A DNA stretch of 64,000 bases from Eledone cirrhosa. Taxonomy: Eukaryota. The stretch is from the NCBI GenBank assembly GCA_964016885.1, contig OZ024760.1, positions 30,442,001-30,506,000 on the forward strand. The letters run 5' to 3'. Each line of letters opens with the position of its first letter. Position 1 is the first letter of the stretch. A program made the position numbers and the translations under genes. Positions 1 to 34,849 of the stretch are shown here, one piece after another. Below the pieces are notes generated by a model that saw only the letters and a program-made list of their open reading frames with translations, was not told the origin of the DNA and searched no databases.

Positions 1-3000
1 AATGTTATGTAATGTAATGTATAATGTAATGTAATGTAATGTAATGTGTAATGTAATGTAATGTTATGTAATGTAATGTATAATGTAATGTAATGTAATG
101 TAATATGTAATGTAATGTAATGTGTAATGTAGTGTAATGTAATGTAATGTAATATGTAATGTAATGTAATGTAATGTAATGTGTAATGTAATGTAATGTA
201 ATGTGATGTAACGTGCAATGTAATGTAATGTAATGTAATGTGTAATGTAATGTAATGTAATGTAATGTAATGCAATGTAATGTAATGTAATGTAATGTAA
301 TGTAATGTAATGTAATGTAATGTAATGTAATGTAATGTGTAATGTAATGTAATGTAATATAATGTAATGTAATGTAATGTAATGTGTAATGTAATGTAAT
401 GTAATGTAATGTGCAATGTAATGTGATGTAATGTAATGTGTAATGTAAAGTAATGTATAATGTAATGTAATGTAATGTGTAATGTAATGTAATGTAATGT
501 AATGTGTAATGTAATGTAATGTAATGTGTAATGTAATGTAATGTAATGTAATGTGTAATGTAATGTAATGTAATGTAATGTAATGTAATGTAATGTAATG
601 TGTAATGTAATGCAATGTAATGTAATGTAATGCAATGTAATGTAATGTAATGTAATGTAATGTAATGTAATGAAATGTGATGTGTAATGTGTAATGCAAT
701 GTAATGTAACGTAATGTAATGTAATGTAATGTAATGTAATGTAATGTAATGTAATGTAATGTAATGTAATGTAATGTAATGTAATGTAATGTAATGTAAT
801 GTAATGTAATGTAATGTAATGTAATGTAATGTAATATGTAATGTAATGTAATGTAATGTAATGTGTAATGTAATGTAATGTAATGTAATGTAATGTGTAA
901 TGTAATGTAATGTAATGTAATGTAATGTGTAATGTAATGTAATGTAATGTAATGTGTAATGTAATGTAATGTAATGTAATGTAATGTGTAATGTAATGTA
1001 ATGTGTAATGTAATGTAATGTAATGTAATGTAATGTAATGTGTAATGTAATGTAATGTGTAATGTAATGTGTAATGTAATGTAACGTAATGTAATGTAAT
1101 GTAATGTAATGTAATATGTAATGTAATGTAATGTAATGTAATTTAATGTAATGTCTAATGTAATGTAATGTAATGTAATGTAATGTAATGTGTAATGTAA
1201 TGTAATGTTAAGTAATGTAATGTGTAATGTAATGCAATGTAATATAATGTAATGTGTCATGTAGTGTAACGTAATGTAATGTAATGTAATGTAATATGTA
1301 ATGTAATGTAATGTGTAATGTAATGTAATGTAATGTAATGTGTAATGTAATGTAATGTAATGTAATGTAATGTAATGTAATGTGTAATGTAATGTAATGT
1401 AATGTAATGTGTAATGTAATGTAATGTGTAACGTAACGTAATGTAATGTAATGTAATGTAATGTAATGTAATGTAATGTAATGTAATGTAATGTAATGTG
1501 TAATGTAATGTAATGTAATGTAATGTAATGTGTAATGTAATGTAATGTAATCTAATGTAATGTGTAATGTAATGTAATGTAATGTAATGTAATGTAATGT
1601 AATGTAATGTAATGTAATGTGTAACGTAATGTAATGTAATGTAATGTAACGTAATGTAATGTAATGTAATGTAATGTAATGTGTAATGTAATGTAATGTA
1701 ATGTAATGTAATGTAAAGTAATGTAATGAAATGTAATGTGTAATGTGTAATGCAATGCAATGTAATGTAATGTAATGTAATGTAATGTAATGTAATGTAA
1801 TGTAATGTAATGTAATGTAATGTAATGTGTAATGTAATGTAATGTAATGTAATGTAATGTAATGTAATGCAATGCAATGTAATGTAATGTAATGTAATGT
1901 AATGTAATGTAATGTAATGTAATGTAATGTGTAATGTGTAATGTAATGTAATGTAATGTAATGTGTATTGTAATGTAATGTAATGTGTAATGTAATGTAA
2001 TGTAATGTGTAATGTAATGTAATGTGTAATGTAATGTAATGTGTAATGTAATGTAATGTTATGTAATGTAATGTATAATGTAATGTAATGTAATGTAATG
2101 TGTAATGTAATGTAATGTTATGTAATGTAATGTATAATGTAATGTAATGTAATGTAATATGTAATGTAATGTAATGTGTAATGTAGTGTAATGTAATGTA
2201 ATGTAATATGTAATGTAATGTAATGTAATGTAATGTGTAATGTAATGTAATGTAATGTGATGTAACGTGCAATGTAATGTAATGTAATGTAATGTGTAAT
2301 GTAATGTAATGTAATGTAATGTAATGCAATGTAATGTAATGTAATGTAATGTAATGTAATGTAATGTAATGTAATGTAATGTAATGTAATGTGTAATGTA
2401 ATGTAATGTAATATAATGTAATGTAATGTAATGTAATGTGTAATGTAATGTAATGTAATGTAATGTGCAATGTAATGTGATGTAATGTAATGTGTAATGT
2501 AAAGTAATGTATAATGTAATGTAATGTAATGTGTAATGTAATGTAATGTAATGTAATGTGTAATGTAATGTAATGTAATGTGTAATGTAATGTAATGTAA
2601 TGTAATGTGTAATGTAATGTAATGTAATGTAATGTAATGTAATGTAATGTAATGTGTAATGTAATGCAATGTAATGTAATGTAATGCAATGTAATGTAAT
2701 GTAATGTAATGTAATGTAATGTAATGAAATGTGATGTGTAATGTGTAATGCAATGTAATGTAACGTAATGTAATGTAATGTAATGTAATGTAATGTAATG
2801 TAATGTAATGTAATGTAATGTAATGTAATGTAATGTAATGTAATGTAATGTAATGTAATGTAATGTAATGTAATATGTAATGTAATGTAATGTAATGTAA
2901 TGTGTAATGTAATGTAATGTAATGTAATGTAATGTGTAATGTAATGTAATGTAATGTAATGTAATGTGTAATGTAATGTAATGTAATGTAATGTGTAATG

Positions 3001-3423
3001 TAATGTAATGTAATGTAATGTAATGTGTAATGTAATGTAATGTGTAATGTAATGTAATGTATAATGTAATGTAATGTAATGTGTAATGTAATGTAATGTA
3101 ATGTGTAATGTATTGTAATGTAATGTAATGTGCAATGTAATGTAATGTAATGTAATGTATAATGTAATGTAATGTAATGTGTAATGTAATGTAATGTAAT
3201 GTAATGTAATGTGTAATGTAACGTAATGTAATGTAATGTGTAATGTAATGTAATGTAATGTAATGTGTAATGTAATGTAATGTAATGTAATGTGTAATGT
3301 AATGTATTGTAATGTAATGTAATTGTTTCTAATTTAGGCACAAGGTCAGCAATTACCCTGTGCATTACTGGTACTTTATTTTATCGACCGCGTAAGGATG
3401 AAAAGCAAAGTCAACCTCGGTGG

Positions 3424-3432
3424 GATTTGAAC
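3424..3432 (-). promoter_or_regulatory. Pol III internal promoter B box (GTTCAAATC) of the SINE; equivalent site in all 12 copies
   Basis: Exact match to GTTCRANNC on the minus strand. Copy 11 has GTTCAAGTC. Confidence 0.85.
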
Positions 3433-3485
3433 TCAGATCGTAAAGGGACGTAACTATGCTGGAAAGCATGGCGTCCGACCCTCTA

Positions 3486-3497
3486 CCGATACTGCCA
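3486..3497 (-). promoter_or_regulatory. Pol III internal promoter A box (TGGCAGTATCGG) of the SINE
   Basis: Approximate match to the TRGCNNARYNGG consensus, 10 nt from the element 5' end and about 53 nt upstream of the B box. Mutated to TGGTTATATCGG in copy 9. Confidence 0.7.
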
Positions 3498-4735
3498 ATC
3501 CACCGCCGTTTGTAATGTAATGTAATGTAATGCAATGTAATGTAACGTAATGTAATGTAATGTAATGTAATGTAATGTAATGTGTAATGTAATGTGATGT
3601 AATGTAATGTAATGTAATGTAACGTAATGTAATGTAATGTAATGTAATGTAATGTAATGTAATGTAGTGAAAATGTAATGTAATGTGTAATGTAATGTGT
3701 AACGTAATGTAATGTGTAATGTAATGTAATGTAATGTAATGTAATGTAATGTAATGTAATGTGTAATGTAATGTAATGTAATGTAATGTTTAATGTAATG
3801 TAACGTAATGTAATGTAATGTAATGTTTAATGTAATGTAATGTAATGTAACGTGCAATGTAATGTAATGTAATGTAATGTGTAATGTAAAGTAATGTATA
3901 ATGTAATGTAATGTAATGTAATGTGTAATGTAATGTAATGTAATGTAAAGTAATGTAATGTAATGTAATGTAATGTAATGTGTAATGTAATGTAATGTAA
4001 AGTAATGTAATGTGTAGTGTAATGTAATTTAATGTAATGTAGCGTAATGTGTAATGTAGTGTAATGTAATATAATGTTTAATGTAAAGTAACGTAATGTA
4101 ATGTAATGTAATGTGTAATGTAATGTAATGTAATGTGTAATGTAATGTAATGTAATGTAATGTAATGTAATGTGTAATGTGTAATGTAATGTAATGTAAT
4201 GTAATGTAATGTTATGTAATGTAATGTAGTGTAATGTAATGTAATGCAACGTAATATAATGTAATGTAATGTAATGTAATGTGTAATGTAATGTAATGTA
4301 ATGTGTAATGTAATGTAATGTAATGTGTAATGTAATGTAATGTAATGTGTAATGTAATGTAATGTAATGTGTAATGTAATGTAATGTGTAATGTAATGTA
4401 ATGTTATGTAATGTAATGTATAATGTAATGTAATGTAATGTAATGTAATGTGTAATGTAATGTAATGTAGTGTAATGTATAATGTAATGTAATGTGTAAT
4501 GTAATGTAATGTAATGTGTAATGTAATGTAATGTAATGTAATGTAATGTGCAATGTAATGTAATGTAATGTAATGTGTAATGTAATGTAATGTATAATGT
4601 AATGTAATGTAATGTACTGTGTAATGTAATGTAATGTAATGTGTAATGTAATGTAATGTAATGTAATGTAATGTAATGTGTAATGTAATGTAATGTAATG
4701 TAATGTGTAATGTAATGTATCGTAATGTAATGTAA

Positions 4736-4920
4736 TTGTTTCTAATTTAGGCACAAGGTCAGCAATTACCCTGTGCATTACTGGTACTTTATTTTATCGA
4801 CCCCGTAAGGATGAAAAGCAAAGTCAACCTCGGTGGGATTTGAACTCAGATCGTAAAGGGACGTAACTATGCTGGAAAGCATGGCGTCCGACCCTCTACC
4901 GATACTGCCAATCCACCGCC
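4736..4920 (-). mobile_element. tRNA-derived SINE, copy 2 (HOR type B)
   Basis: Matches copy 1 except for GACCCCGT. Flanks are GTATCGTAAT on the left and GTTTGTGATG on the right. Confidence 0.88.
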
Positions 4921-7900
4921 GTTTGTGATGTAATGTAATGTAATGTAATGTTTAATGTAATGTAATGTAATATGTAATGTAATGTAATGTAATGAAAATG
5001 TAATATAATGTGTAATGTAATGTGTAATGTAATGCAATGTGTAATGTAATGTAATGTAATGTAATGTAATGTGTAATGTAATGTAATGTAATGTAATGTA
5101 ATGTAATGTAATGTAATGTTTAATGTAATGTAACGTAATGTAATGTAATGTAATGTTTAATGTAATGTAATGTAACGTAACGTAATGTAATGTAATGTAA
5201 TGTAATGTAATGTAATGTAATGTAATATAATGAAGTGTAATGTAATGTAATGAAATGTAATGTAATGTGTAATGTAATGTAGTGTAGTGTAATGTAATGA
5301 AATGTAATGTAATGTAATGTAATGTAATGTAATGTAATGTAATGTAATGTAATGTAATGTAATGTAATGTGATGTAATGTAACGTGTAATGTAATGTAAT
5401 GTAATGTGAAATGTAATGTAATGTAATGTAATATGTAATGTAATGTAATGTTTAATGTAATTTAATGTAATGTAATGTAACGTGTAATATAATGTAAAGT
5501 AATGTAATGTAATGTAATATAATGTAATATAATGTAATGTCTAAAGTAATGTAATGTAATGTAATGTAATGCAATGTGTAATGTAATGTAATGTAATGTA
5601 ATGTAATGTAATGTAATGTGTAATGTAATGTAATGTAATATAATGTTTAATGTAATGTAACGTAATGTAATGTAATGTAATGTGTAATGTAATGTAATGT
5701 AATGTAATGTAATGTAATGTGTAATGTAATGTAATGTAATGTAATGTGTAATGTAATGTAATGTAATGTGTAATGTGTAATGTGTAATGTGTAATGTAAT
5801 TTAATGTAATGTAATGTAATGTAACGTAACGTAATGTAATGTAATGTAATGTAATGTAATGTAATGTAATGTAATGTAATGTAATGTGTAATGTAATGTA
5901 ATGTAATGTAACGTAATATAACGTGTAATGTAATGTAATGTAATGTAATGTAATGTTATGTAATGTAATGTAATGTAATGTAATGTAATGTGTAATGTAA
6001 TGTAATGTAATGTAATGTAATGTGTAATGTAATGTAATGTGTAATGTAATGTGTAATGTAATGTAACGTAATGTAATGTAATGTAATGTAATGTAATATG
6101 TAATGTAATGTAATGTAATGTAATTTAATGTAATGTCTAATGTAATGTAATGTAATGTAATGTAATGTAATGTGTAATGTAATGTAATGTTAAGTAATGT
6201 AATGTGTAATGTAATGCAATGTAATATAATGTAATGTGTCATGTAGTGTAACGTAATGTAATGTAATGTAATGTAATATGTAATGTAATGTAATGTGTAA
6301 TGTAATGTAATGTAATGTAATGTGTAATGTAATGTAATGTAATGTAATGTAATGTAATGTAATGTGTAATGTAATGTAATGTAATGTAATGTGTAATGTA
6401 ATGTAATGTGTAACGTAACGTAATGTAATGTAATGTAATGTAATGTAATGTAATGTAATGTAATGTAATGTAATGTAATGTAATGTGTAATGTAATGTAA
6501 TGTAATGTAATGTAATGTGTAATGTAATGTAATGTAATCTAATGTAATGTGTAATGTAATGTAATGTAATGTAATGTAATGTAATGTAATGTAATGTAAT
6601 GTAATGTAATGTGTAACGTAATGTAATGTAATGTAATGTAACGTAATGTAATGTAATGTAATGTAATGTAATGTAATGTGTAATGTAATGTAATGTAATG
6701 TAATGTAATGTAAAGTAATGTAATGAAATGTAATGTGTAATGTGTAATGCAATGCAATGTAATGTAATGTAATGTAATGTAATGTAATGTAATGTAATGT
6801 AATGTAATGTAATGTAATGTAATGTAATGTAATGTAATGTAATGTGTAATGTAATGTAATGTAATGTAATGTAATGTAATGTAATGCAATGCAATGTAAT
6901 GTAATGTAATGTAATGTAATGTAATGTAATGTAATGTAATGTAATGTGTAATGTGTAATGTAATGTAATGTAATGTAATGTGTATTGTAATGTAATGTAA
7001 TGTGTAATGTAATGTAATGTAATGTGTAATGTAATGTAATGTGTAATGTAATGTAATGTGTAATGTAATGTAATGTTATGTAATGTAATGTATAATGTAA
7101 TGTAATGTAATGTAATGTGTAATGTAATGTAATGTTATGTAATGTAATGTATAATGTAATGTAATGTAATGTAATATGTAATGTAATGTAATGTGTAATG
7201 TAGTGTAATGTAATGTAATGTAATATGTAATGTAATGTAATGTAATGTAATGTGTAATGTAATGTAATGTAATGTGATGTAACGTGCAATGTAATGTAAT
7301 GTAATGTAATGTGTAATGTAATGTAATGTAATGTAATGTAATGCAATGTAATGTAATGTAATGTAATGTAATGTAATGTAATGTAATGTAATGTAATGTA
7401 ATGTAATGTGTAATGTAATGTAATGTAATATAATGTAATGTAATGTAATGTAATGTGTAATGTAATGTAATGTAATGTAATGTGCAATGTAATGTGATGT
7501 AATGTAATGTGTAATGTAAAGTAATGTATAATGTAATGTAATGTAATGTAATGTAATGTGTAATGTAATGTAATGTAATGTAATGTGTAATGTAATGTAA
7601 TGTAATGTGTAATGTAATGTAATGTAATGTAATGTGTAATGTAATGTAATGTAATGTAATGTAATGTAATGTAATGTAATGTGTAATGTAATGCAATGTA
7701 ATGTAATGTAATGCAATGTAATGTAATGTAATGTAATGTAATGTAATGTAATGAAATGTGATGTGTAATGTGTAATGCAATGTAATGTAACGTAATGTAA
7801 TGTAATGTAATGTAATGTAATGTAATGTAATGTAATGTAATGTAATGTAATGTTATGTAATGTAATGTAATGTAATGTAATGTAATGTAATATGTAATGT

Positions 7901-8339
7901 AATGTAATGTAATGTAATGTGTAATGTAATGTAATGTAATGTAATGTAATGTGTAATGTAATGTAATGTAATGTAATGTAATGTGTAATGTAATGTAATG
8001 TAATGTAATGTGTAATGTAATGTAATGTAATGTAATGTAATGTGTAATGTAATGTAATGTGTAATGTAATGTAATGTATAATGTAATGTAATGTAATGTG
8101 TAATGTAATGTAATGTAATGTGTAATGTATTGTAATGTAATGTAATGTGCAATGTAATGTAATGTAATGTAATGTATAATGTAATGTAATGTAATGTGTA
8201 ATGTAATGTAATGTAATGTAATGTAATGTGTAATGTAACGTAATGTAATGTAATGTGTAATGTAATATAATGTAATGTAATGTGTAATGTAATGTAATGT
8301 AATGTAATGTGTAATGTAATGTATTGTAATGTAATGTAA

Positions 8340-8524
8340 TTGTTTCTAATTTAGGCACAAGGTCAGCAATTACCCTGTGCATTACTGGTACTTTATTTTA
8401 TCGACCGCGTAAGGATGAAAAGCAAAGTCAACCTCGGTGGGATTTGAACTCAGATCGTAAAGGGACGTAACTATGCTGGAAAGCATGGCGTCCGACCCTC
8501 TACCGATACTGCCAATCCACCGCC
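8340..8524 (-). mobile_element. tRNA-derived SINE, copy 3 (type A)
   Basis: Same sequence and immediate flanks as copy 1. Confidence 0.88.
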
Positions 8525-11281
8525 GTTTGTAATGTAATGTAATGTAATGCAATGTAATGTAACGTAATGTAATGTAATGTAATGTAATGTAATGTAATGT
8601 AATGTGTAATGTAATGTGATGTAATGTAATGTAATGTAATGTAACGTAATGTAATGTAATGTAATGTAATGTAATGTAATGTAATGTAGTGAATATGTAA
8701 TGTAATGTGTAATGTAATGTGTAACGTAATGTAATGTGTAATGTAATGTAATGTAATGTAATGTAATGTAATGTAATGTAATGTAATGTGTAATGTAATG
8801 TAATGTAATGTAATGTTTAATGTAATGTAACGTAATGTAATGTAATGTAATGTTTAATGTAATGTAATGTAATGTAACGTGCAATGTAATGTAATGTAAT
8901 GTAATGTGTAATGTAAAGTAATGTATAATGTAATGTAATGTAATGTAATGTGTAATGTAATGTAATGTAATGTAAAGTAATGTAATGTAATGTAATGTAA
9001 TGTAATGTGTAATGTAATGTAATGTAAAGTAATGTAATGTGTAATGTAACGTAATGTAATGTAATGTAATGTGTAATGTAATATAATGTAATGTAATGTA
9101 ATGTGTAATGTAATGTAATGTGTAATGTAATGTAATGTAATGTAATGTAATGTAATGTAATGTAATGTAATGTAATGTGTAATGTAATGTAATGTAATGT
9201 AATGTGTAATGTAATGTAATGTAATGTAATGTAATGTGTAATGTAATGTAATGTGTAATGTAATGTAATGTAATGTAATGTAATGTAATGTAATGTGTAA
9301 TGTAATGTAATGTAATGTGTAATGTAATGTAATGTAATGTAATGTAATGTAATGTAATGTAATTTAATGTAATGTAATGTAATGTAATGTAATGTAATGT
9401 GTAATGTAAAGTAATGTATAATGTAATGTAATGTAATGTAATGTGTAATGTAATGTAATGTAATGTAATGTAATGTAATGTGTAATGTAATGTAATGTAA
9501 TGTAATGTGTAATGTAACGTAATGTAATGTAATGTAATGTGTAATGTAATGTAATGTGTAATGTAATGTAATGTAATGTAATGTAATGTGTAATGTAATG
9601 TAATGTAATGTAATGTGTAATGTAATGTAATGTAATGTAATGTAATGTAATGAAATGTAATGTGTAATGTGTAATGCAATGTAATGTAATGTAATGTAAT
9701 GTAATGTAATGTAATGTAATGTAATGTAATGTAATGTAATGTAATGTAATGTAATGTAATGTGTAATGTAATGTGATGTAATGTAATGTAGTGTAATGTA
9801 ATGCAATGTAATGTAATGTAATATAATGTAATGTAATGTAATGTAATGTAATGTAATGTAATGTAATGTAATGTAATGTGTAATGTAACGTAATGTAATG
9901 TGTAATGTAATATAATGTAATGTAATATGTAATGTAATGTAATGTTTAATGTAATGTAATGTAATATAATGTAATATAATGTAATGTATAATGTAATGGA
10001 ATGTAATGTAATGTAATGTAATGCAATGTGTAATGTAATGTAATGTAATATAATGTTTAATGTAATGTAACGTAATGTAATGTAATGTAATGTGTAATGT
10101 AATGTAATGTAATGTAATGTAATGTAATGTAATGTAATGTAATGTAATGTGTAATGTAATGTAATGTAATGTAATGTGTAATGTAATGTAACGTAATGTA
10201 ATGTGTAATGTGTAATGTAATTTAATGTAAAGTAATGTAAGGTAATGTAATGTAATGTAACGTAATGTAATGTAATATGTAATGTAATGTAATGTAATGT
10301 AATGTAATGTAATGTAATGTAATGTAATGTAATGTAATGTGTAATGTAATGTAATGTAATGTAATGTAATGTAATGTGTAATGTAATGTAATGTGTAATG
10401 TAATGTAATGTAATGTAATATAATGTAATATAATGTAATGTATAATGTAATGTAATGTAATGCAATGTGTAAGGTAATGTAATGTAATGTAATGTAATGT
10501 AATGTAAGGTAATGTGTAATGTGTAATGTAATGTAATGTAAAGTAATGTAATGTGTAGTGTAATGTAATTTAATGTAATGTAGCGTAATGTGTAATGTAG
10601 TGTAATGTAATATAATGTTTAATGTAAAGTAACGTAATGTAATGTAATGTAATGTGTAATGTAATGTAATGTAATGTGTAATGTAATGTAATGTAATGTA
10701 ATGTAATGTAATGTGTAATGTGTAATGTAATGTAATGTAATGTAATGTAATGTTATGTAATGTAATGTAGTGTAATGTAATGTAATGCAACGTAATATAA
10801 TGTAATGTAATGTAATGTAATGTGTAATGTAATGTAATGTAATGTGTAATGTAATGTAATGTAATGTGTAATGTAATGTAATGTAATGTGTAATGTAATG
10901 TAATGTAATGTGTAATGTAATGTAATGTGTAATGTAATGTAATGTTATGTAATGTAATGTATAATGTAATGTAATGTAATGTAATGTAATGTGTAATGTA
11001 ATGTAATGTAGTGTAATGTATAATGTAATGTAATGTGTAATGTAATGTAATGTAATGTGTAATGTAATGTAATGTAATGTAATGTAATGTGCAATGTAAT
11101 GTAATGTAATGTAATGTGTAATGTAATGTAATGTATAATGTAATGTAATGTAATGTACTGTGTAATGTAATGTAATGTAATGTAATGTGTAATGTAATGT
11201 AATGTAATGTAATGTAATGTAATGTGTAATGTAATGTAATGTAATGTAATGTGTAATGTAATGTATCGTAATGTAATGTAA

Positions 11282-11466
11282 TTGTTTCTAATTTAGGCAC
11301 AAGGTCAGCAATTACCCTGTGCATTACTGGTACTTTATTTTATCGACCCCGTAAGGATGAAAAGCAAAGTCAACCTCGGTGGGATTTGAACTCAGATCGT
11401 AAAGGGACGTAACTATGCTGGAAAGCATGGCGTCCGACCCTCTACCGATACTGCCAATCCACCGCC
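11282..11466 (-). mobile_element. tRNA-derived SINE, copy 4 (type B)
   Basis: Same sequence and immediate flanks as copy 2, 6546 bp downstream of it. Confidence 0.88.
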
Positions 11467-14400
11467 GTTTGTGATGTAATGTAATGTAATGTAATGTTTA
11501 ATGTAATGTAATGTAATATGTAATGTAATGTAATGTAATGAAAATGTAATATAATGTGTAATGTAATGTGTAATGTAATGCAATGTGTAATGTAATGTAA
11601 TGTAATGTAATGTAATGTGTAATGTAATGTAATGTAATGTAATGTAATGTAATGTAATGTAATGTTTAATGTAATGTAACGTAATGTAATGTAATGTAAT
11701 GTTTAATGTAATGTAATGTAACGTAACGTAATGTAATGTAATGTAATGTAATGTAATGTAATGTAATGTAATAAAATGAAGTGTAATGTAATCTAATGAA
11801 ATGTAATGTAATGTGTAATGTAATGTAGTGTAGTGTAATGTAATGAAATGTAATGTAATGTAATGTAATGTAATGTAATGTAATGTAATGTAATGTAATG
11901 TAATGTAATGTGATGTAATGTAACGTGTAATGTAATGTAATGTAATGTGAAATGTAATGTAATGTAATGTAATATGTAATGTAATGTAATGTTTAATGTA
12001 ATTTAATGTAATGTAATGTAACGTGTAATATAATGTAAAGTAATGTAATGTAATGTAATATAATGTAATATAATGTAATGTCTAAAGTAATGTAATGTAA
12101 TGTAATGTAATGCAATGTGTAATGTAATGTAATGTAATGTAATGTAATGTAATGTAATGTGTAATGTAATGTAATGTAATATAATGTTTAATGTAATGTA
12201 ACGTAATGTAATGTAATGTAATGTGTAATGTAATGTAATGTAATGTAATGTAATGTAATGTGTAATGTAATGTAATGTAATGTAATGTGTAATGTAATGT
12301 AATGTAATGTGTAATGTGTAATGTGTAATGTGTAATGTAATTTAATGTAATGTAATGTAATGTAATGTAACGTAACGTAATGTAATGTAATGTAATGTAA
12401 TGTAATGTAATGTAATGTAATGTAATGTAATGTGTAATGTAATGTAATGTAATGTAACGTAATATAACGTGTAATGTAATGTAATGTAATGTAATGTAAT
12501 GTTATGTAATGTAATGTAATGTAATGTAATGTAATGTAATGTGTAATGTAATGTAATGTAATGTAATGTAATGTAATGTGTAATGTAATGTAATGTGTAA
12601 TGTAATGTGTAATGTAATGTAACGTAATGTAATGTAATGTAATGTAATGTAATATGTAATGTAATGTAATGTAATGTAATTTAATGTAATGTCTAATGTA
12701 ATGTAATGTAATGTAATGTAATGTAATGTGTAATGTAATGTAATGTTAAGTAATGTAATGTGTAATGTAATGCAATGTAATATAATGTAATGTGTCATGT
12801 AGTGTAACGTAATGTAATGTAATGTAATGTAATATGTAATGTAATGTAATGTGTAATGTAATGTAATGTAATGTAATGTGTAATGTAATGTAATGTAATG
12901 TAATGTAATGTAATGTAATGTGTAATGTAATGTAATGTAATGTAATGTGTAATGTAATGTAATGTGTAACGTAACGTAATGTAATGTAATGTAATGTAAT
13001 GTAATGTAATGTAATGTAATGTAATGTAATGTAATGTAATGTGTAATGTAATGTAATGTAATGTAATGTAATGTGTAATGTAATGTAATGTAATCTAATG
13101 TAATGTGTAATGTAATGTAATGTAATGTAATGTAATGTAATGTAATGTAATGTAATGTAATGTAATGTGTAACGTAATGTAATGTAATGTAATGTAACGT
13201 AATGTAATGTAATGTAATGTAATGTAATGTAATGTGTAATGTAATGTAATGTAATGTAATGTAATGTAAAGTAATGTAATGAAATGTAATGTGTAATGTG
13301 TAATGCAATGCAATGTAATGTAATGTAATGTAATGTAATGTAATGTAATGTAATGTAATGTAATGTAATGTAATGTAATGTAATGTAATGTAATGTGTAA
13401 TGTAATGTAATGTAATGTAATGTAATGTAATGTAATGCAATGCAATGTAATGTAATGTAATGTAATGTAATGTAATGTAATGTAATGTAATGTAATGTGT
13501 AATGTGTAATGTAATGTAATGTAATGTAATGTGTATTGTAATGTAATGTAATGTGTAATGTAATGTAATGTAATGTGTAATGTAATGTAATGTGTAATGT
13601 AATGTAATGTGTAATGTAATGTAATGTTATGTAATGTAATGTATAATGTAATGTAATGTAATGTAATGTGTAATGTAATGTAATGTTATGTAATGTAATG
13701 TATAATGTAATGTAATGTAATGTAATATGTAATGTAATGTAATGTGTAATGTAGTGTAATGTAATGTAATGTAATATGTAATGTAATGTAATGTAATGTA
13801 ATGTGTAATGTAATGTAATGTAATGTGATGTAACGTGCAATGTAATGTAATGTAATGTAATGTGTAATGTAATGTAATGTAATGTAATGTAATGCAATGT
13901 AATGTAATGTAATGTAATGTAATGTAATGTAATGTAATGTAATGTAATGTAATGTGTAATGTAATGTAATGTAATATAATGTAATGTAATGTAATGTAAT
14001 GTGTAATGTAATGTAATGTAATGTAATGTGCAATGTAATGTGATGTAATGTAATGTGTAATGTAAAGTAATGTATAATGTAATGTAATGTAATGTAATGT
14101 AATGTGTAATGTAATGTAATGTAATGTAATGTGTAATGTAATGTAATGTAATGTGTAATGTAATGTAATGTAATGTAATGTGTAATGTAATGTAATGTAA
14201 TGTAATGTAATGTAATGTAATGTAATGTGTAATGTAATGCAATGTAATGTAATGTAATGCAATGTAATGTAATGTAATGTAATGTAATGTAATGTAATGA
14301 AATGTGATGTGTAATGTGTAATGCAATGTAATGTAACGTAATGTAATGTAATGTAATGTAATGTAATGTAATGTAATGTAATGTAATGTAATGTAATGTT

Positions 14401-14885
14401 ATGTAATGTAATGTAATGTAATGTAATGTAATGTAATATGTAATGTAATGTAATGTAATGTAATGTGTAATGTAATGTAATGTAATGTAATGTAATGTGT
14501 AATGTAATGTAATGTAATGTAATGTAATGTGTAATGTAATGTAATGTAATGTAATGTGTAATGTAATGTAATGTAATGTAATGTAATGTGTAATGTAATG
14601 TAATGTGTAATGTAATGTAATGTATAATGTAATGTAATGTAATGTGTAATGTAATGTAATGTAATGTGTAATGTATTGTAATGTAATGTAATGTGCAATG
14701 TAATGTAATGTAATGTAATGTATAATGTAATGTAATGTAATGTGTAATGTAATGTAATGTAATGTAATGTAATGTGTAATGTAACGTAATGTAATGTAAT
14801 GTGTAATGTAATGTAATGTAATGTAATGTGTAATGTAATGTAATGTAATGTAATGTGTAATGTAATGTATTGTAATGTAATGTAA

Positions 14886-15070
14886 TTGTTTCTAATTTAG
14901 GCACAAGGTCAGCAATTACCCTGTGCATTACTGGTACTTTATTTTATCGACCGCGTAAGGATGAAAAGCAAAGTCAACCTCGGTGGGATTTGAACTCAGA
15001 TCGTAAAGGGACGTAACTATGCTGGAAAGCATGGCGTCCGACCCTCTACCGATACTGCCAATCCACCGCC
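14886..15070 (-). mobile_element. tRNA-derived SINE, copy 5 (type A)
   Basis: Same as copy 3, 6546 bp downstream of it. Confidence 0.88.
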
Positions 15071-17827
15071 GTTTGTAATGTAATGTAATGTAATGCAATG
15101 TAATGTAACGTAATGTAATGTAATGTAATGTAATGTAATGTAATGTAATGTGTAATGTAATGTGATGTAATGTAATGTAATGTAATGTAACGTAATGTAA
15201 TGTAATGTAATGTAATGTAATGTAATGTAATGTAGTGAATATGTAATGTAATGTGTAATGTAATGTGTAACGTAATGTAATGTGTAATGTAATGTAATGT
15301 AATGTAATGTAATGTAATGTAATGTAATGTAATGTGTAATGTAATGTAATGTAATGTAATGTTTAATGTAATGTAACGTAATGTAATGTAATGTAATGTT
15401 TAATGTAATGTAATGTAATGTAACGTGCAATGTAATGTAATGTAATGTAATGTGTAATGTAAAGTAATGTATAATGTAATGTAATGTAATGTAATGTGTA
15501 ATGTAATGTAATGTAATGTAAAGTAATGTAATGTAATGTAATGTAATGTAATGTGTAATGTAATGTAATGTAAAGTAATGTAATGTGTAATGTAACGTAA
15601 TGTAATGTAATGTAATGTGTAATGTAATATAATGTAATGTAATGTAATGTGTAATGTAATGTAATGTGTAATGTAATGTAATGTAATGTAATGTAATGTA
15701 ATGTAATGTAATGTAATGTGTAATGTAATGTAATGTAATGTAATGTGTAATGTAATGTAATGTAATGTAATGTAATGTGTAATGTAATGTAATGTGTAAT
15801 GTAATGTAATGTAATGTAATGTAATGTAATGTAATGTGTAATGTAATGTAATGTAATGTGTAATGTAATGTAATGTAATGTAATGTAATGTAATGTAATG
15901 TAATTTAATGTAATGTAATGTAATGTAATGTAATGTAATGTGTAATGTAAAGTAATGTATAATGTAATGTAATGTAATGTAATGTGTAATGTAATGTAAT
16001 GTAATGTAATGTAATGTAATGTGTAATGTAATGTAATGTAATGTAATGTGTAATGTAACGTAATGTAATGTAATGTAATGTGTAATGTAATGTAATGTGT
16101 AATGTAATGTAATGTAATGTAATGTAATGTGTAATGTAATGTAATGTAATGTAATGTGTAATGTAATGTAATGTAATGTAATGTAATGTAATGAAATGTA
16201 ATGTGTAATGTGTAATGCAATGTAATGTAATGTAATGTAATGTAATGTAATGTAATGTAATGTAATGTAATGTAATGTAATGTAATGTAATGTAATGTAA
16301 TGTGTAATGTAATGTGATGTAATGTAATGTAGTGTAATGTAATGCAATGTAATGTAATGTAATATAATGTAATGTAATGTAATGTAATGTAATGTAATGT
16401 AATGTAATGTAATGTAATGTGTAATGTAACGTAATGTAATGTGTAATGTAATATAATGTAATGTAATATGTAATGTAATGTAATGTTTAATGTAATGTAA
16501 TGTAATATAATGTAATATAATGTAATGTATAATGTAATGGAATGTAATGTAATGTAATGTAATGCAATGTGTAATGTAATGTAATGTAATATAATGTTTA
16601 ATGTAATGTAACGTAATGTAATGTAATGTAATGTGTAATGTAATGTAATGTAATGTAATGTAATGTAATGTAATGTAATGTAATGTAATGTGTAATGTAA
16701 TGTAATGTAATGTAATGTGTAATGTAATGTAACGTAATGTAATGTGTAATGTGTAATGTAATTTAATGTAAAGTAATGTAAGGTAATGTAATGTAATGTA
16801 ACGTAATGTAATGTAATATGTAATGTAATGTAATGTAATGTAATGTAATGTAATGTAATGTAATGTAATGTAATGTAATGTGTAATGTAATGTAATGTAA
16901 TGTAATGTAATGTAATGTAATGTGTAATGTAATGTAATGTGTAATGTAATGTAATGTAATGTAATATAATGTAATATAATGTAATGTATAATGTAATGTA
17001 ATGTAATGCAATGTGTAAGGTAATGTAATGTAATGTAATGTAATGTAATGTAAGGTAATGTGTAATGTGTAATGTAATGTAATGTAAAGTAATGTAATGT
17101 GTAGTGTAATGTAATTTAATGTAATGTAGCGTAATGTGTAATGTAGTGTAATGTAATATAATGTTTAATGTAAAGTAACGTAATGTAATGTAATGTAATG
17201 TGTAATGTAATGTAATGTAATGTGTAATGTAATGTAATGTAATGTAATGTAATGTAATGTGTAATGTGTAATGTAATGTAATGTAATGTAATGTAATGTT
17301 ATGTAATGTAATGTAGTGTAATGTAATGTAATGCAACGTAATATAATGTAATGTAATGTAATGTAATGTGTAATGTAATGTAATGTAATGTGTAATGTAA
17401 TGTAATGTAATGTGTAATGTAATGTAATGTAATGTGTAATGTAATGTAATGTAATGTGTAATGTAATGTAATGTGTAATGTAATGTAATGTTATGTAATG
17501 TAATGTATAATGTAATGTAATGTAATGTAATGTAATGTGTAATGTAATGTAATGTAGTGTAATGTATAATGTAATGTAATGTGTAATGTAATGTAATGTA
17601 ATGTGTAATGTAATGTAATGTAATGTAATGTAATGTGCAATGTAATGTAATGTAATGTAATGTGTAATGTAATGTAATGTATAATGTAATGTAATGTAAT
17701 GTACTGTGTAATGTAATGTAATGTAATGTAATGTGTAATGTAATGTAATGTAATGTAATGTAATGTAATGTGTAATGTAATGTAATGTAATGTAATGTGT
17801 AATGTAATGTATCGTAATGTAATGTAA

Positions 17828-18012
17828 TTGTTTCTAATTTAGGCACAAGGTCAGCAATTACCCTGTGCATTACTGGTACTTTATTTTATCGACCCCGTAA
17901 GGATGAAAAGCAAAGTCAACCTCGGTGGGATTTGAACTCAGATCGTAAAGGGACGTAACTATGCTGGAAAGCATGGCGTCCGACCCTCTACCGATACTGC
18001 CAATCCACCGCC
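17828..18012 (-). mobile_element. tRNA-derived SINE, copy 6 (type B)
   Basis: Same as copy 4, 6546 bp downstream of it. Confidence 0.88.
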
Positions 18013-21000
18013 GTTTGTGATGTAATGTAATGTAATGTAATGTTTAATGTAATGTAATGTAATATGTAATGTAATGTAATGTAATGAAAATGTAATATAA
18101 TGTGTAATGTAATGTGTAATGTAATGCAATGTGTAATGTAATGTAATGTAATGTAATGTAATGTGTAATGTAATGTAATGTAATGTAATGTAATGTAATG
18201 TAATGTAATGTTTAATGTAATGTAACGTAATGTAATGTAATGTAATGTTTAATGTAATGTAATGTAACGTAACGTAATGTAATGTAATGTAATGTAATGT
18301 AATGTAATGTAATGTAATATAATGAAGTGTAATGTAATGTAATGAAATGTAATGTAATGTGTAATGTAATGTAGTGTAGTGTAATGTAATGAAATGTAAT
18401 GTAATGTAATGTAATGTAATGTAATGTAATGTAATGTAATGTAATGTAATGTAATGTGATGTAATGTAACGTGTAATGTAATGTAATGTAATGTGAAATG
18501 TAATGTAATGTAATGTAATATGTAATGTAATGTAATGTTTAATGTAATTTAATGTAATGTAATGTAACGTGTAATATAATGTAAAGTAATGTAATGTAAT
18601 GTAATATAATGTAATATAATGTAATGTCTAAAGTAATGTAATGTAATGTAATGCAATGCAATGTGTAATGTAATGTAATGTAATGTAATGTAATGTAATG
18701 TAATGTAATGTAATGTGTAATGTAATGTAATGTAATATAATGTTTAATGTAATGTAACGTAATGTAATGTAATGTAATGTGTAATGTAATGTAATGTAAT
18801 GTAATGTAATGTAATGTGTAATGTAATGTAATGTAATGTAATGTGTAATGTAATGTAATGTAATGTGTAATGTGTAATGTGTAATGTGTAATGTAATTTA
18901 ATGTAATGTAATGTAATGTAATGTAACGTAACGTAATGTAATGTAATGTAATGTAATGTAATGTAATGTAATGTAATGTAATGTAATGTGTAATGTAATG
19001 TAATGTAATGTAACGTAATATAACGTGTAATGTAATGTAATGTAATGTAATGTAATGTTATGTAATGTAATGTAATGTAATGTAATGTAATGTGTAATGT
19101 AATGTAATGTAATGTAATGTAATGTAATGTGTAATGTAATGTAATGTGTAATGTAATGTGTAATGTAATGTAACGTAATGTAATGTAATGTAATGTAATG
19201 TAATATGTAATGTAATGTAATGTAATGTAATTTAATGTAATGTCTAATGTAATGTAATGTAATGTAATGTAATGTAATGTGTAATGTAATGTAATGTTAA
19301 GTAATGTAATGTGTAATGTAATGCAATGTAATATAATGTAATGTGTCATGTAGTGTATCGTAATGTAATGTAATGTAATGTAATATGTAATGTAATGTAA
19401 TGTGTAATGTAATGTAATGTAATGTAATGTGTAATGTAATGTAATGTAATGTAATGTAATGTAATGTAATGTGTAATGTAATGTAATGTAATGTAATGTG
19501 TAATGTAATGTAATGTGTAACGTAACGTAATGTAATGTAATGTAATGTAATGTAATGTAATGTAATGTAATGTAATGTAATGTAATGTAATGTGTAATGT
19601 AATGTAATGTAATGTAATGTAATGTGTAATGTAATGTAATGTAATCTAATGTAATGTGTAATGTAATGTAATGTAATGTAATGTAATGTAATGTAATGTA
19701 ATGTAATGTAATGTAATGTGTAACGTAATGTAATGTAATGTAATGTAACGTAATGTAATGTAATGTAATGTAATGTAATGTAATGTGTAATGTAATGTAA
19801 TGTAATGTAATGTAAAGTAATGTAATGAAATGTAATGTGTAATGTGTAATGCAATGCAATGTAATGTAATGTAATGTAATGTAATGTAATGTAATGTAAT
19901 GTAATGTAATGTAATGTAATGTAATGTAATGTAATGTGTAATGTAATGTAATGTAATGTAATGTAATGTAATGTAATGCAATGCAATGTAATGTAATGTA
20001 ATGTAATGTAATGTAATGTAATGTAATGTAATGTAATGTAATGTGTAATGTGTAATGTAATGTAATGTAATGTAATGTGTATTGTAATGTAATGTAATGT
20101 GTAATGTAATGTAATGTAATGTGTAATGTAATGTAATGTGTAATGTAATGTAATGTGTAATGTAATGTAATGTTATGTAATGTAATGTATAATGTAATGT
20201 AATGTAATGTAATGTGTAATGTAATGTAATGTTATGTAATGTAATGTATAATGTAATGTAATGTAATGTAATATGTAATGTAATGTAATGTGTAATGTAG
20301 TGTAATGTAATGTAATGTAATATGTAATGTAATGTAATGTAATGTGTAATGTAATGTAATGTAATGTGATGTAACGTGCAATGTAATGTAATGTAATGTA
20401 ATGTGTAATGTAATGTAATGTAATGTAATGTAATGCAATGTAATGTAATGTAATGTAATGTAATGTAATGTAATGTAATGTAATGTAATGTAATGTAATG
20501 TGTAATGTAATGTAATGTAATATAATGTAATGTAATGTAATGTAATGTGTAATGTAATGTAATGTAATGTAATGTGCAATGTAATGTGATGTAATGTAAT
20601 GTGTAATGTAAAGTAATGTATAATGTAATGTAATGTAATGTAATGTAATGTGTAATGTAATGTAATGTAATGTAATGTGTAATGTAATGTAATGTAATGT
20701 GTAATGTAATGTAATGTAATGTAATGTGTAATGTAATGTAATGTAATGTAATGTAATGTAATGTAATGTAATGTGTAATGTAATGCAATGTAATGTAATG
20801 TAATGCAATGTAATGTAATGTAATGTAATGTAATGTAATGTAATGAAATGTGATGTGTAATGTGTAATGCAATGTAATGTAACGTAATGTAATGTAATGT
20901 AATGTAATGTAATGTAATGTAATGTAATGTAATGTAATGTAATGTAATGTAATGTAATGTAATGTAATGTAATGTAATGTAATATGTAATGTAATGTAAT

Positions 21001-21377
21001 GTAATGTAATGTGTAATGTAATGTAATGTAATGTAATGTAATGTGTAATGTAATGTAATGTAATGTAATGTAATGTGTAATGTAATGTAATGTAATGTAA
21101 TGTGTAATGTAATGTAATGTAATGTAATGTAATGTGTAATGTAATGTAATGTGTAATGTAATGTAATGTATAATGTAATGTAATGTAATGTGTAATGTAA
21201 TGTAATGTAATGTGTAATGTATTGTAATGTAATGTAATGTGCAATGTAATGTAATGTAATGTAATGTATAATGTAATGTAATGTAATGTGTAATGTAATG
21301 TAATGTAATGTAATGTAATGTGTAATGTAATGTAATGTAATGTAATGTGTAATGTAATGTATTGTAATGTAATGTAA

Positions 21378-21562
21378 TTGTTTCTAATTTAGGCACAAGG
21401 TCAGCAATTACCCTGTGCATTACTGGTACTTTATTTTATCGACCGCGTAAGGATGAAAAGCAAAGTCAACCTCGGTGGGATTTGAACTCAGATCGTAAAG
21501 GGACGTAACTATGCTGGAAAGCATGGCGTCCGACCCTCTACCGATACTGCCAATCCACCGCC
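21378..21562 (-). mobile_element. tRNA-derived SINE, copy 7 (type A)
   Basis: Same as copy 5, 6492 bp downstream of it. Confidence 0.88.
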
Positions 21563-24279
21563 GTTTGTAATGTAATGTAATGTAATGCAATGTAATGTAA
21601 CGTAATGTAATGTAATGTAATGTAATGTAATGTAATGTAATGTGTAATGTAATGTGATGTAATGTAATGTAATGTAATGTAACGTAATGTAATGTAATGT
21701 AATGTAATGTAATGTAATGTAATGTAGTGAATATGTAATGTAATGTGTAATGTAATGTGTAACGTAATGTAATGTGTAATGTAATGTAATGTAATGTAAT
21801 GTAATGTAATGTAATGTAATGTGTAATGTAATGTAATGTAATGTAATGTTTAATGTAATGTAACGTAATGTAATGTAATGTAATGTTTAATGTAATGTAA
21901 TGTAATGTAACGTGCAATGTAATGTAATGTAATGTAATGTGTAATGTAAAGTAATGTATAATGTAATGTAATGTAATGTAATGTGTAATGTAATGTAATG
22001 TAATGTAAAGTAATGTAATGTAATGTAATGTAATGTAATGTGTAATGTAATGTAATGTAAAGTAATGTAATGTGTAATGTAACGTAATGTAATGTAATGT
22101 AATGTGTAATGTAATATAATGTAATGTAATGTAATGTGTAATGTAATGTAATGTGTAATGTAATGTAATGTAATGTAATGTAATGTAATGTAATGTAATG
22201 TAATGTGTAATGTAATGTAATGTAATGTAATGTGTAATGTAATGTAATGTAATGTAATGTAATGTGTAATGTAATGTAATGTGTAATGTAATGTAATGTA
22301 ATGTAATGTAATGTAATGTGTAATGTAATGTAATGTAATGTGTAATGTAATGTAATGTAATGTAATGTAATGTAATGTAATGTAATTTAATGTAATGTAA
22401 TGTAATGTAATGTAATGTAATGTGTAATGTAAAGTAATGTATAATGTAATGTAATGTAATGTAATGTGTAATGTAATGTAATGTAATGTAATGTGTAATG
22501 TAATGTAATGTAATGTAATGTGTAATGTAACGTAATGTAATGTAATGTAATGTGTAATGTAATGTAATGTGTAATGTAATGTAATGTAATGTAATGTAAT
22601 GTGTAATGTAATGTAATGTAATGTAATGTGTAATGTAATGTAATGTAATGTAATGTAATGTAATGAAATGTAATGTGTAATGTGTAATGCAATGTAATGT
22701 AATGTAATGTAATGTAATGTAATGTAATGTAATGTAATGTAATGTAATGTAATGTAATGTAATGTAATGTGTAATGTAATGTGATGTAATGTAATGTAGT
22801 GTAATGTAATGCAATGTAATGTAATGTAATATAATGTAATGTAATGTAATGTAATGTAATGTAATGTAATGTAATGTAATGTAATGTGTAATGTAACGTA
22901 ATGTAATGTGTAATGTAATATAATGTAATGTAATATGTAATGTAATGTAATGTTTAATGTAATGTAATGTAATATAATGTAATATAATGTAATGTATAAT
23001 GTAATGGAATGTAATGTAATGTAATGTAATGCAATGTGTAATGTAATGTAATATAATGTTTAATGTAATGTAACGTAATGTAATGTAATGTAATGTGTAA
23101 TGTAATGTAATGTAATGTAATGTAATGTAATGTAATGTAATGTAATGTGTAATGTAATGTAATGTAATGTAATGTGTAATGTAATGTAACGTAATGTAAT
23201 GTGTAATGTGTAATGTAATTTAATGTAAAGTAATGTAAGGTAATGTAATGTAATGTAACGTAATGTAATGTAATATGTAATGTAATGTAATGTAATGTAA
23301 TGTAATGTAATGTAATGTAATGTAATGTAATGTAATGTGTAATGTAATGTAATGTAATGTAATGTAATGTAATGTGTAATGTAATGTAATGTGTAATGTA
23401 ATGTAATGTAATGTAATATAATGTAATATAATGTAATGTATAATGTAATGTAATGTAATGCAATGTGTAAGGTAATGTAATGTAATGTAATGTAATGTAA
23501 TGTAAGGTAATGTGTAATGTGTAATGTAATGTAATGTAAAGTAATGTAATGTGTAGTGTAATGTAATTTAATGTAATGTAGCGTAATGTGTAATGTAGTG
23601 TAATGTAATATAATGTTTAATGTAAAGTAACGTAATGTAATGTAATGTAATGTGTAATGTAATGTAATGTAATGTGTAATGTAATGTAATGTAATGTAAT
23701 GTAATGTAATGTGTAATGTGTAATGTAATGTAATGTAATGTAATGTAATGTTATGTAATGTAATGTAGTGTAATGTAATGTAATGCAACGTAATATAATG
23801 TAATGTAATGTAATGTAATGTGTAATGTAATGTAATGTAATGTGTAATGTAATGTAATGTAATGTGTAATGTAATGTAATGTAATGTGTAATGTAATGTA
23901 ATGTAATGTGTAATGTAATGTAATGTGTAATGTAATGTAATGTTATGTAATGTAATGTATAATGTAATGTAATGTAATGTAATGTAATGTGTAATGTAAT
24001 GTAATGTAGTGTAATGTATAATGTAATGTAATGTGTAATGTAATGTAATGTAATGTGTAATGTAATGTAATGTAATGTAATGTAATGTGCAATGTAATGT
24101 AATGTAATGTAATGTGTAATGTAATGTAATGTATAATGTAATGTAATGTAATGTACTGTGTAATGTAATGTAATGTAATGTAATGTGTAATGTAATGTAA
24201 TGTAATGTAATGTAATGTAATGTGTAATGTAATGTAATGTAATGTAATGTGTAATGTAATGTATCGTAATGTAATGTAA

Positions 24280-24464
24280 TTGTTTCTAATTTAGGCACAA
24301 GGTCAGCAATTACCCTGTGCATTACTGGTACTTTATTTTATCGACCCCGTAAGGATGAAAAGCAAAGTCAACCTCGGTGGGATTTGAACTCAGATCGTAA
24401 AGGGACGTAACTATGCTGGAAAGCATGGCGTCCGACCCTCTACCGATACTGCCAATCCACCGCC
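24280..24464 (-). mobile_element. tRNA-derived SINE, copy 8 (type B)
   Basis: Same as copy 6, 6452 bp downstream of it. Confidence 0.88.
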
Positions 24465-27400
24465 GTTTGTGATGTAATGTAATGTAATGTAATGTTTAAT
24501 GTAATGTAATGTAATATGTAATGTAATGTAATGTAATGAAAATGTAATATAATGTGTAATGTAATGTGTAATGTAATGCAATGTGTAATGTAATGTAATG
24601 TAATGTAATGTAATGTGTAATGTAATGTAATGTAATGTAATGTAATGTAATGTAATGTAATGTTTAATGTAATGTAACGTAATGTAATGTAATGTAATGT
24701 TTAATGTAATGTAATGTAACGTAACGTAATGTAATGTAATGTAATGTAATGTAATGTAATGTAATGTAATGTAATAAAATGAAGTGTAATGTAATGTAAT
24801 GAAATGTAATGTAATGTGTAATGTAATGTAGTGTAGTGTAATGTAATGAAATGTAATGTAATGTAATGTAATGTAATGTAATGTAATGTAATGTAATGTA
24901 ATGTAATGTAATGTGATGTAATGTAACGTGTAATGTAATGTAATGTAATGTGAAATGTAATGTAATGTAATGTAATATGTAATGTAATGTAATGTTTAAT
25001 GTAATTTAATGTAATGTAATGTAACGTGTAATATAATGTAAAGTAATGTAATGTAATGTAATATAATGTAATATAATGTAATGTCTAAAGTAATGTAATG
25101 TAATGTAATGTAATGCAATGTGTAATGTAATGTAATGTAATGTAATGTAATGTAATGTAATGTGTAATGTAATGTAATGTAATATAATGTTTAATGTAAT
25201 GTAACGTAATGTAATGTAATGTAATGTGTAATGTAATGTAATGTAATGTAATGTAATGTAATGTGTAATGTAATGTAATGTAATGTAATGTGTAATGTAA
25301 TGTAATGTAATGTGTAATGTGTAATGTGTAATGTAATTTAATGTAATGTAATGTAATGTAATGTAATGTAATGTAATGTAATGTAAAGTAATGTAATGTA
25401 ATGTAACGTAATGTAACGTAATGTAATGTAATGTGTAATGTAATGTAATGTAATGTAATGTAATGTAATGTAATGTAATGTAAAGTAATGTGTAATGTAA
25501 TGTTGTGTAATGTAATGTAATGTAATGTAATGTGTAATGTAATGTAATGTAATATAATGTAATGTAATGTAATGTAATGTGTAATGTAATGTAATGTAAT
25601 GTAATGTAATGTAATGTAATGTAATGTGTAATGTAATGTAATGTAATGTAATGTAATGTAATGTAATGTAATGTAATTTAATGTAATGTAATGTAATGTA
25701 ATGTAATGTAATGTAATGTAATGCAATATGTAATGTAATGTAATGTAATTTAATGTAATGTCTAATGTAATGTAATGTAATGTAATGTAATGTAATATAA
25801 TGTAATGTAATGTGTAATGTAATGTAATGTAATGTAATGTAATGTGTAATGTAATGTAATGTAATGTAATGTAATGTAATGTAATGTAATGTAATGTGTC
25901 ATGTAGTGTAATGTAATGTAATATGTAATGTAATGTAATGTGTAATGTATTGTAATGTAATGTAATGTGTAATGTAGTGTAATGTAATGTAATGTAATGT
26001 AATGTGTAAAGTAATGTAATGTGTAATGTAATGTAATGTAATGTAATGTAATGTAATGTAATGCAATGTAATGTAATGTAATGTAGTGTAATGTGTAATG
26101 TAATGTAATGTAATGTAATGTAATGTAATGTTTAATGTAATGTAATGTGTAATGTTTAATGTAATGTAATGTAATGTGTAATGTAATGTAAGGTAATGTA
26201 ATGTAATGTGTAATGTAACGTAATGTAATGTAATGTAATGTGTAATGTAATGTAATGTAATGTGTAATGTAATGTAATGTAATGTAATATATAATGTAAT
26301 GTAATGTAATGTGTAATGTAATGTAATGTAATGTGTAATGTAATGTAATGTAATGTAATGTAATGTAATGTATAATGTAATGTAATGTAACGTAATGTGT
26401 AATGTAATGTAATGTAATGTAATGTGTAATGTAATGTAATGTAGTGTAATGTATAATGTAATGTAATGTAATGCAATGCAATGCAATGTAATGTAATGTA
26501 ATGTAATGTAATGTAATGTAATGTAATGTAATGTAATGTAATGTAATGTGTAATGTAATGTAATGTAATGTGTAATGTAATGTAATGTAATGTAATGTAA
26601 TGTAACGTAATGTGTAATGTAATGTAATGTAATGTAATGTAATGTAAATTAATGTAATGTAATGTAATGTGTAATGTGTAATGCAATGTAATGTAATGTA
26701 ATGTAATGTAATGTAATGTAATGTAATGTAATGTAATGCAATGTAATGTATTGTAATGTAATGTAATGTAATGTGTAATGTAATGTAATGTAATGTAATG
26801 TGTAATGTAATGTAATGAAATGTCATGTAATGTGTAATGTAATGTAATGTAATGTGTAACGTAATGTAATGTAATGTAATGTGTAATGTAATGTAATGTA
26901 ATGTAATGTAACGTGTAAGGTAATGTGTAATGTAATGTAATGTAATGTTATGTAATGTAATGTATAATGTAATGTAATGTAATGTAATGTAATGTAATGT
27001 AATGTAATGTGTAATGTAATGTAATGTAATGTGTAATGTATTGTAATGTAATGTAATGTAATGTGTAATGTAATGTAATGTAATGTAATGTAATGTGTAA
27101 TGTACTGTAATGTAATGTAATGTAATGTAATGTAATGTAAAGTGTAATGTAATGTAATGTAATGTAATGTAATGTGCAATGTAATGTAATGTAATGTAAT
27201 GTGTAATGTAATGTAATGTATAATGTAATGTAATGAAATGTAATGTTTAATGTAATGTAATGTAATGTAATGTAATGTAATGTAATGTGTAATGTAATGT
27301 AATGTAATGTAATGTGTAATGTAATGTAATGTAATGTAACGTGTAATGTAACGTAATGTAATGTAATGTGTAATGTAATGCAATGTGTAACGTAATGTAA

Positions 27401-34815: not shown

Positions 34816-34849
34816 ATGTAATGTAATGTAATGTAATGTAATGTAATGT

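Follow-up and report, generated by a model that had tools for sequence, protein, structure and literature searches.

The closest described systems to the locus considered here are human satellites. In DYZ1 (HSat3, Yq12), nested units of ~3.6 kb have arisen from CATTC through recent iterative tandem duplications, and in DYZ2 (HSat1B) an AT-rich unit of ~2.5 kb includes an AluY subunit (10.1101/2022.12.01.518724). For short interspersed elements (SINEs) of the RTE type, a microsatellite-like 3' tail has been proposed to pair with the target and start reverse transcription (PMC6007223), and in the O. vulgaris assembly SINEs account for 11.6% of the sequence (PMC13282606). Here we describe a 64,000-nucleotide stretch of contig OZ024760.1 (the window throughout), which is a single AATGT array from end to end, interrupted by SINE-like inserts. 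Within it, a 6.5-kb stretch of satellite has probably been multiplied into four tandem copies via unequal exchange, carrying as passengers SINEs that likely stem from one retrotransposition. On the best reading the structure is real and its mechanism ordinary, namely nested duplication by unequal exchange.

A 6.5-kb block repeated four times in tandem

The array comprises 12,071.6 copies of the pentamer at 83% matches. Twelve inserts lie in the window, all in the same orientation (minus), and eight of them, each of ~184 bp, fall within 1020-25380. For this region a first-pass annotation had proposed a composite higher-order repeat (HOR) built from the satellite and two captured SINE types, A and B, in strict alternation. 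The distances that it gave between successive insert anchors (1413, 3604, 2942, 3604, 2942, 3550 and 2902 bp) are exact, and so is the alternation, which follows trivially once a block with two copies of the insert is repeated.

A motif marking the start of the block was found at 1140, 6122, 12678 and 19229, and again at 25747 in an older, diverged context. Measured from anchor to anchor the copies are 4982, 6556, 6551 and 6518 bp long, at odds with the regular unit described at first. Any two copies are separated by 3-7 substitutions over the 4.7-6.2 kb compared and by 5-16 indels, mostly of whole monomers. The copies are thus more alike than the monomers inside them (83% matches), as befits a multimer, and the earlier proposal of a recent large-unit tandem amplification within a simple satellite is borne out. 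Among copies 1 to 4 there are seven substitution sites and two larger deletions, of 1514 bp in copy 1 and 54 bp in copy 4. Each copy possesses at least one private substitution; the middle copies, 2 and 3, form the most similar pair, and two shared substitutions group the copies incompatibly ({2,3|1,4} versus {2,4|1,3}).

Satellite stretches were compared by their variant tokens, MAFFT alignment of satellite flanks being uninformative. Block copies scored 69-119 per kb against 9-13 for the shuffled null, a recurrence far beyond chance. Rare variants recur near the 6546 bp first reported, with offsets of 6541-6556 among copies 1-2-3 away from the deletion of copy 1, of 6452-6492 from copy 3 to copy 4, and of ~5017 where that deletion intervenes. 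Pure-run length varies in 21 of 251 runs, rising from 1 of 142 at 1-3 units to 8 of 10 above 10 units; length changes since the duplication are concentrated in the long pure runs.

The sequence at 1-1011 repeats 2055-3060, and the homogenised block therefore extends past the left window edge, displacing the limit at 1020 that had been assigned to it. Four copies amount to a local tandem duplication rather than to the array implied by the term HOR, the region left of the window being unseen. The ends of the block sit in satellite, ~0.9-1.1 kb away from the nearest SINE (element B). A diverged block-start motif lies one unit length past the anchor of copy 4 and could have served as a substrate for unequal exchange; homology with the 25364-25950 segment likely set the length of the unit. 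Another reading, that two homologous halves make up the unit, was rejected: once past ~40 bases that look identical and a few hundred that are loosely similar, the flanks of A and B score near the null (right 9.6, null maximum 9.5; left 8.8, null maximum 10.1).

The coordinates of the block copies and of the other features are collected below.

Table 1. Features of the 64-kb window, in order of position.
Feature	Position	Strand	Remarks
(AATGT)n simple satellite	1..64000		~42 variant tokens per kb; extra GT commonest
Partial extra block copy	1..1011		Equals 2055-3060 with 0 substitutions and 2 indels; runs off the window
Block copy 1	1012..5993		4982 bp; 1514 bp missing between the two SINEs (gap near 3974)
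SINE-like A1	3324..3507	-	A-box-like motif at element position 11, B-box-like at 76
Element B1	4737..4920	-	1 base different from A
Block copy 2	5994..12549		~6556 bp; limits good to within a few monomers
Element A2	8341..8524	-	SINE-like insert
Element B2	11283..11466	-	SINE-like insert
Block copy 3	12550..19100		~6551 bp; nearest to copy 2 (4 substitutions, 5 indels)
Element A3	14887..15070	-	SINE-like insert
Element B3	17829..18012	-	SINE-like insert
Block copy 4	19101..25363		54-bp deletion near 21300; near-identity stops at ~25343-25363
Element A4	21379..21562	-	SINE-like insert
Element B4	24281..24464	-	SINE-like insert
Older diverged homologue of block start	25364..25950		Anchor motif at 25747, 6518 bp from the copy-4 anchor
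Element C	31684..31866	-	Probable older copy of the A/B insertion; junctions and private bases in common
Element D	34631..34815	-	Independent insertion; element-free site elsewhere in the array
Empty site for both D flanks	44416..45043		Token score 36.7 left, 19.9 right
Second empty site for both D flanks	46762..47468		Token score 37.0 left, 19.9 right
SINE-free tandem duplication	51996..57999		Period 2986 bp, 0 differences
Element E	59330..59513	-	Likely independent; 11-bp word with a rare variant monomer on both sides
Element F	60629..60812	-	Likely independent; 17-bp flank repeat with one mismatch

The satellite itself is of even quality, with a perfect monomer fraction of 0.74-0.81 in all 16 of the 4-kb bins and no gradient. 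Extra GT accounts for 1157 of the 2650 variant tokens and produces steps of 7 bp and, locally, runs of TGTAATG. Across 1-64000 the GC skew stays at ~ +0.9, without a strand switch. Between 33459 and 61135 there are seventeen runs of 8-14 AATAT-type monomers, mostly in a common variant context. They trace a family of older modules spaced 0.5-10 kb apart, with 0 occurrences within the 6.5-kb block.

Probable passenger SINEs in a pre-existing satellite

In size, copy number and distribution (184 bp, high-copy, interspersed) the insert is as expected of a SINE. Relaxed A- and B-box consensus patterns matched the minus strand at position 11 in five of six representatives (A-box-like) and at position 76 in all six (B-box-like). 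ARAGORN returned 0 tRNA genes in the insert, Rfam gave two chance matches (E 6.3-6.4), and the predicted fold (z -2.77) contains no cloverleaf. The core and 3' end appear to resemble a very common Octopus tRNA-type SINE, of which the window copies would be a shorter form; the host is probably an octopod. All twelve elements are of this short form, and public contigs also contain a longer one, with 38 other letters at 3352-3360.

No RNA run figures among the 24 public sequencing runs listed for the insert; 20 contain part of it and six at least half of its sampled words. The 14 runs below a share of 0.5, including an air metagenome (X17) with 0.36 of the sampled words, were not taken as evidence of host or habitat. 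Public contigs were aligned to the insert from four of the 24 runs, with 115,249 of 16,285,364 contigs falling on it in run X1, 7,347 of 762,587 in X4, 115,761 of 17,641,350 in X5 and 9,452 of 6,943,267 in X6. In run X1 the alignments break sharply near 3320 and 3507, with A/T-rich, unrelated sequence outside. With such abundance and such sharp ends, the insert is an element built like a SINE, dispersed and present in very high copy number, and not one of the unique islands described by the first-pass annotation. Depth in run X1, which is not equivalent to copy number, continues into AATGT for ~0.2% on the 3' side (831 versus 457,752) and ~0.06% on the 5' side (2,125 versus 3,512,288). Past 3320, public contigs continue into A/T-rich sequence, a possible tail, with a consensus agreement of 0.49 in 18 contigs; in the copies described here the tail amounts to a single trinucleotide that blends into the satellite.

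The inserts are richer in GC and CpG than their surroundings, as had been noted (46.7% GC and 51.6 CpG per kb, versus ~22% and 5.8 per kb in the satellite). Of the 209 CpGs in 1012-25334, however, 133 lie in satellite and 76 inside elements, which further weakens the description as islands. The elements occupy 1472 of the 24,323 bp of this interval (~6% of the unit), and the basic monomer is the pentamer, not a SINE fragment.

Other searches for the element were negative. No matching element was found in the supplements of PMC6007223, PMC13282606 and PMC4758252 (three files), and four short core motifs gave no relevant match in the PMC6007223 supplement. A motif search of paper texts and a search of plasmids gave no match; exact matches to core motifs numbered 0 in metagenome contigs for two motifs and 0 in prokaryote genomes for one. 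The possibility that the core is the tail of an RTE long interspersed element, like that of the Sauria SINE, was unsupported by the motif look-up in the PMC6007223 supplement.

The claim of two SINE types does not hold. Elements A and B differ at one of 184 bases (3390, G versus C), where the majority of run X1 contig depth agrees with B. Between A/B and C there are 6-7 differences plus one gap, and between A/B and D, E or F there are 8-13. At 3346, 3359, 3404 and 3421, A, B and C share a base, whereas D, E, F and the majority of run X1 depth carry another. The 6-mer at the 5' junction of A, B and C occurs nine times in 64 kb, in every case at those nine elements, and ~1 kb of right flank is common to B and C (score 19.3, null maximum 13.0). 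Because bases and junctions are shared, A, B and C are likely one insertion that was duplicated together with its flanks.

Element D bears on the order of events. Its flanks are found joined, with no element between them, at two places in the array, and thus the satellite and its variants predate the element. In this search, top one-sided matches to an element's own flank or to block copies were set aside. D sits in a pure run, where its own target-site duplication is not resolvable. By eye, a 17-bp repeat flanks A, B and C; it contains a rare variant monomer and is one base short on one side. The 11-bp flank repeat of E lies one monomer off the element end. Together with that of F, these flank repeats of 11-17 bp fit target-site duplications. 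At every junction an identical handful of bases, present in other genomic copies too, connects the 3' end of the element to satellite. The twelve elements reduce to about four insertion events, for which a common strand has a chance probability of 0.125; since the T|A nick site also recurs once per monomer, neither strand nor register shows targeting.

These observations suggest the following sequence. Members of a very abundant tRNA-type SINE family would have entered an existing array around four times by target-primed reverse transcription, at a nick in the T|A step of the AATGT strand, aided by a few bases in which an ATT-type tail matches the satellite. One such insertion, with its flanks, would have been duplicated to yield A, B and C. 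The block holding A and B would then have been copied when two older homologous segments of satellite, 6.5 kb apart, recombined out of alignment or served for template switching, and repeated rounds would have given rise to four copies and a partial one. The block structure is likely a product of ordinary satellite turnover, and the array is likely heterochromatic filler of which no function need be demanded.

Several points count against this account. No aligned public contig from runs X1, X4, X5 and X6 spans a 221-bp test stretch. Length-dependent run changes also resemble sequencing error, and the incompatible variants could stem from mixed haplotypes. The left end of the block falls outside the window, so that a far longer array is possible. 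The proposed tail sequence rests on the loose-end consensus of 18 contigs, at 0.49 agreement. A two-sided empty site was found in one of five contexts tested (A and B taken as one lineage), the best site for E being one-sided (25.1 right, 2.8 left). Moreover, C has 6-7 private changes against 0-1 in A and B, which defies a simple clock, and the flanks of A and B are only weakly similar past their first bases. Three of the private changes in C cluster in the A-box-like motif; their excess may reflect conversion of A by B or the reverse, or rates of change that differ.

Duplication throughout the array and competing explanations

Duplication in this array is not confined to the block. The array is made up of duplications lying one within another, 0.8-6.5 kb in size and widely different in age, including SINE-free ones of 810, 1013, 2356-2420 and 2986 bp elsewhere in the window. 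As SINE-free duplications exist and the ends of the block lie in satellite, duplication appears to be a property of the array, with the SINE as passenger. The 2356-2420-bp duplication, at 43713-48487, is present in two copies separated by 4 substitutions and 12 indels, and contains both empty sites of D. Best-match divergence, profiled on one side of the block only, is 0-4 substitutions per kb in the block, rises to 20-40 at 25 kb and drops again to 0-8 in places at 35-47 kb and 0-1 at 52-58 kb.

The 2986-bp pair bears on the possibility that the assembly has been inflated, with one or two true copies per haplotype expanded, or haplotypes joined in tandem. Its copies are identical although the pair includes 21 pure runs of at least 7 units, and it is either very young or an assembly duplication. 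Should the pair be real, base error in long runs must be low and the indels of the block are real as well; should it not be, the assembly is capable of duplicating sequence here. Inflation would also account for block copies that are >99.8% alike by substitutions, for copy differences that cluster in long pure runs and for the lack of a spanning record among the aligned public contigs. Conversely, artefactual copies would not be expected to carry the private substitutions seen in each of the four or the private deletions of copies 1 and 4. Furthermore, the array is full of more ancient, diverged versions of these modules, which makes tandem duplication an inherent trait of it. We regard assembly inflation as unlikely. 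The copy-specific variants, among them those at 3672, 8267, 11793, 18654 and 19358, make the assembly checkable by long reads.

Somewhat less likely again is the view that the block is where a large higher-order array, centromeric or pericentromeric, comes to its edge, and that the SINEs are regularly spaced and possibly transcribed islands of that array. The near-identical block does touch the left window edge, the A-box-like and B-box-like motifs are kept in all copies of A and B, and in Drosophila CENP-A has been described on retroelement islands in simple satellite (10.64898/2026.10.08.757135). Within the window, however, there are just four copies besides the partial one, and they vary in length, where such an array would have many copies of a stable unit; the share of the interval taken up by elements is small. 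The picture of a homogeneous core beside a diverged flank, which had been read as a centromere-like layout, is weakened as well: monomer purity shows no gradient, and the supposed flank possesses SINE-free duplications that are equally young (0 differences in 2986 bp). What looked like core and flank is a mosaic in which local duplications of very different size, some bearing SINEs and others free of them, lie side by side, and lends no specific support to a centromere; nothing in this analysis shows one. If the block were to extend far to the left and to bind CENP-A, it would represent a centromere, probably of a cephalopod, composed of a pentamer satellite and SINE islands.

Two further explanations assign the leading role to the element. 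We consider it very improbable that a short SINE subfamily prefers AATGT, enters it on one strand by tail matching and is then multiplied in kilobase units, its Pol III boxes staying intact, into regularly spaced, transcribable islands. Least probable of all is that the SINE drives the structure, through a tail that seeds the satellite, SINE-SINE recombination or a subfamily that targets the satellite: 12 of 12 elements are indeed short-form and on the minus strand with the 3' end in register with the satellite, and the longer form exists in public contigs, but the twelve represent only about four events, the block ends outside SINEs, run X1 end depth seldom enters AATGT, and the empty sites of D rule out the tail as the seed. 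The reading that survives best is that of an ordinary duplication of AATGT satellite by unequal exchange, carrying SINEs from one insertion.

Comparison with known systems

In the literature searched, outside which most subscription papers lie, no paper was found that deals with this array or with the centromeric DNA of cephalopods. The locus would be of greater significance if the unit turned out to belong to a long array bound by CENP-A, or if this SINE subfamily were found to target the satellite genome-wide. As it stands its value is modest and lies in a local order of events, which can be read from SINE sites with and without the element, from the repeats at the flanks and from changes in run length.

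Elements of the plan have been described elsewhere. As in the dimers of transposable elements (TEs) that expand into arrays (PMC5932611), a TE-bearing unit is present in few tandem copies; there, two independent insertions are involved and the TE is the unit, whereas here a single insertion is likely and it makes up 6% of the unit. SINE sequence within tandem arrays is also known from squamate sSat (PMC10702118) and limpet PcH-sat (PMC11121367), whose monomers are SINE pieces of 70-290 nt, in contrast to a SINE that is passenger in a 6.5-kb unit. A pairing of tail and target, as proposed for RTE-type microsatellite-tailed SINEs (PMC6007223), is proposed for the present element too.

The human satellites provide the nearest parallels. 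Like DYZ2, the block has a TE piece fixed in a kilobase-scale tandem unit (here two elements, in 4 of 4 copies). DYZ2, however, spans 14 Mb and contains an old SINE fragment that is 20% diverged, whereas the element here is near full-length, the remainder of the unit is a simple pentamer and each unit holds two copies of one insertion. Arrays of that kind run to hundreds or thousands of units, unlike the four and a partial one within this window, whose left side is unseen. With DYZ1 the locus shares kilobase-scale nested tandem units derived from a pentamer. It differs in having four unequal copies and a partial one in place of >20 Mb, in the pentamer itself and in the intact SINE-like inserts in the unit. 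The locus offers a clean and well-resolved case of how simple satellites gain kilobase-scale periodicity and carry TE insertions, a behaviour known from DYZ1 and DYZ2.

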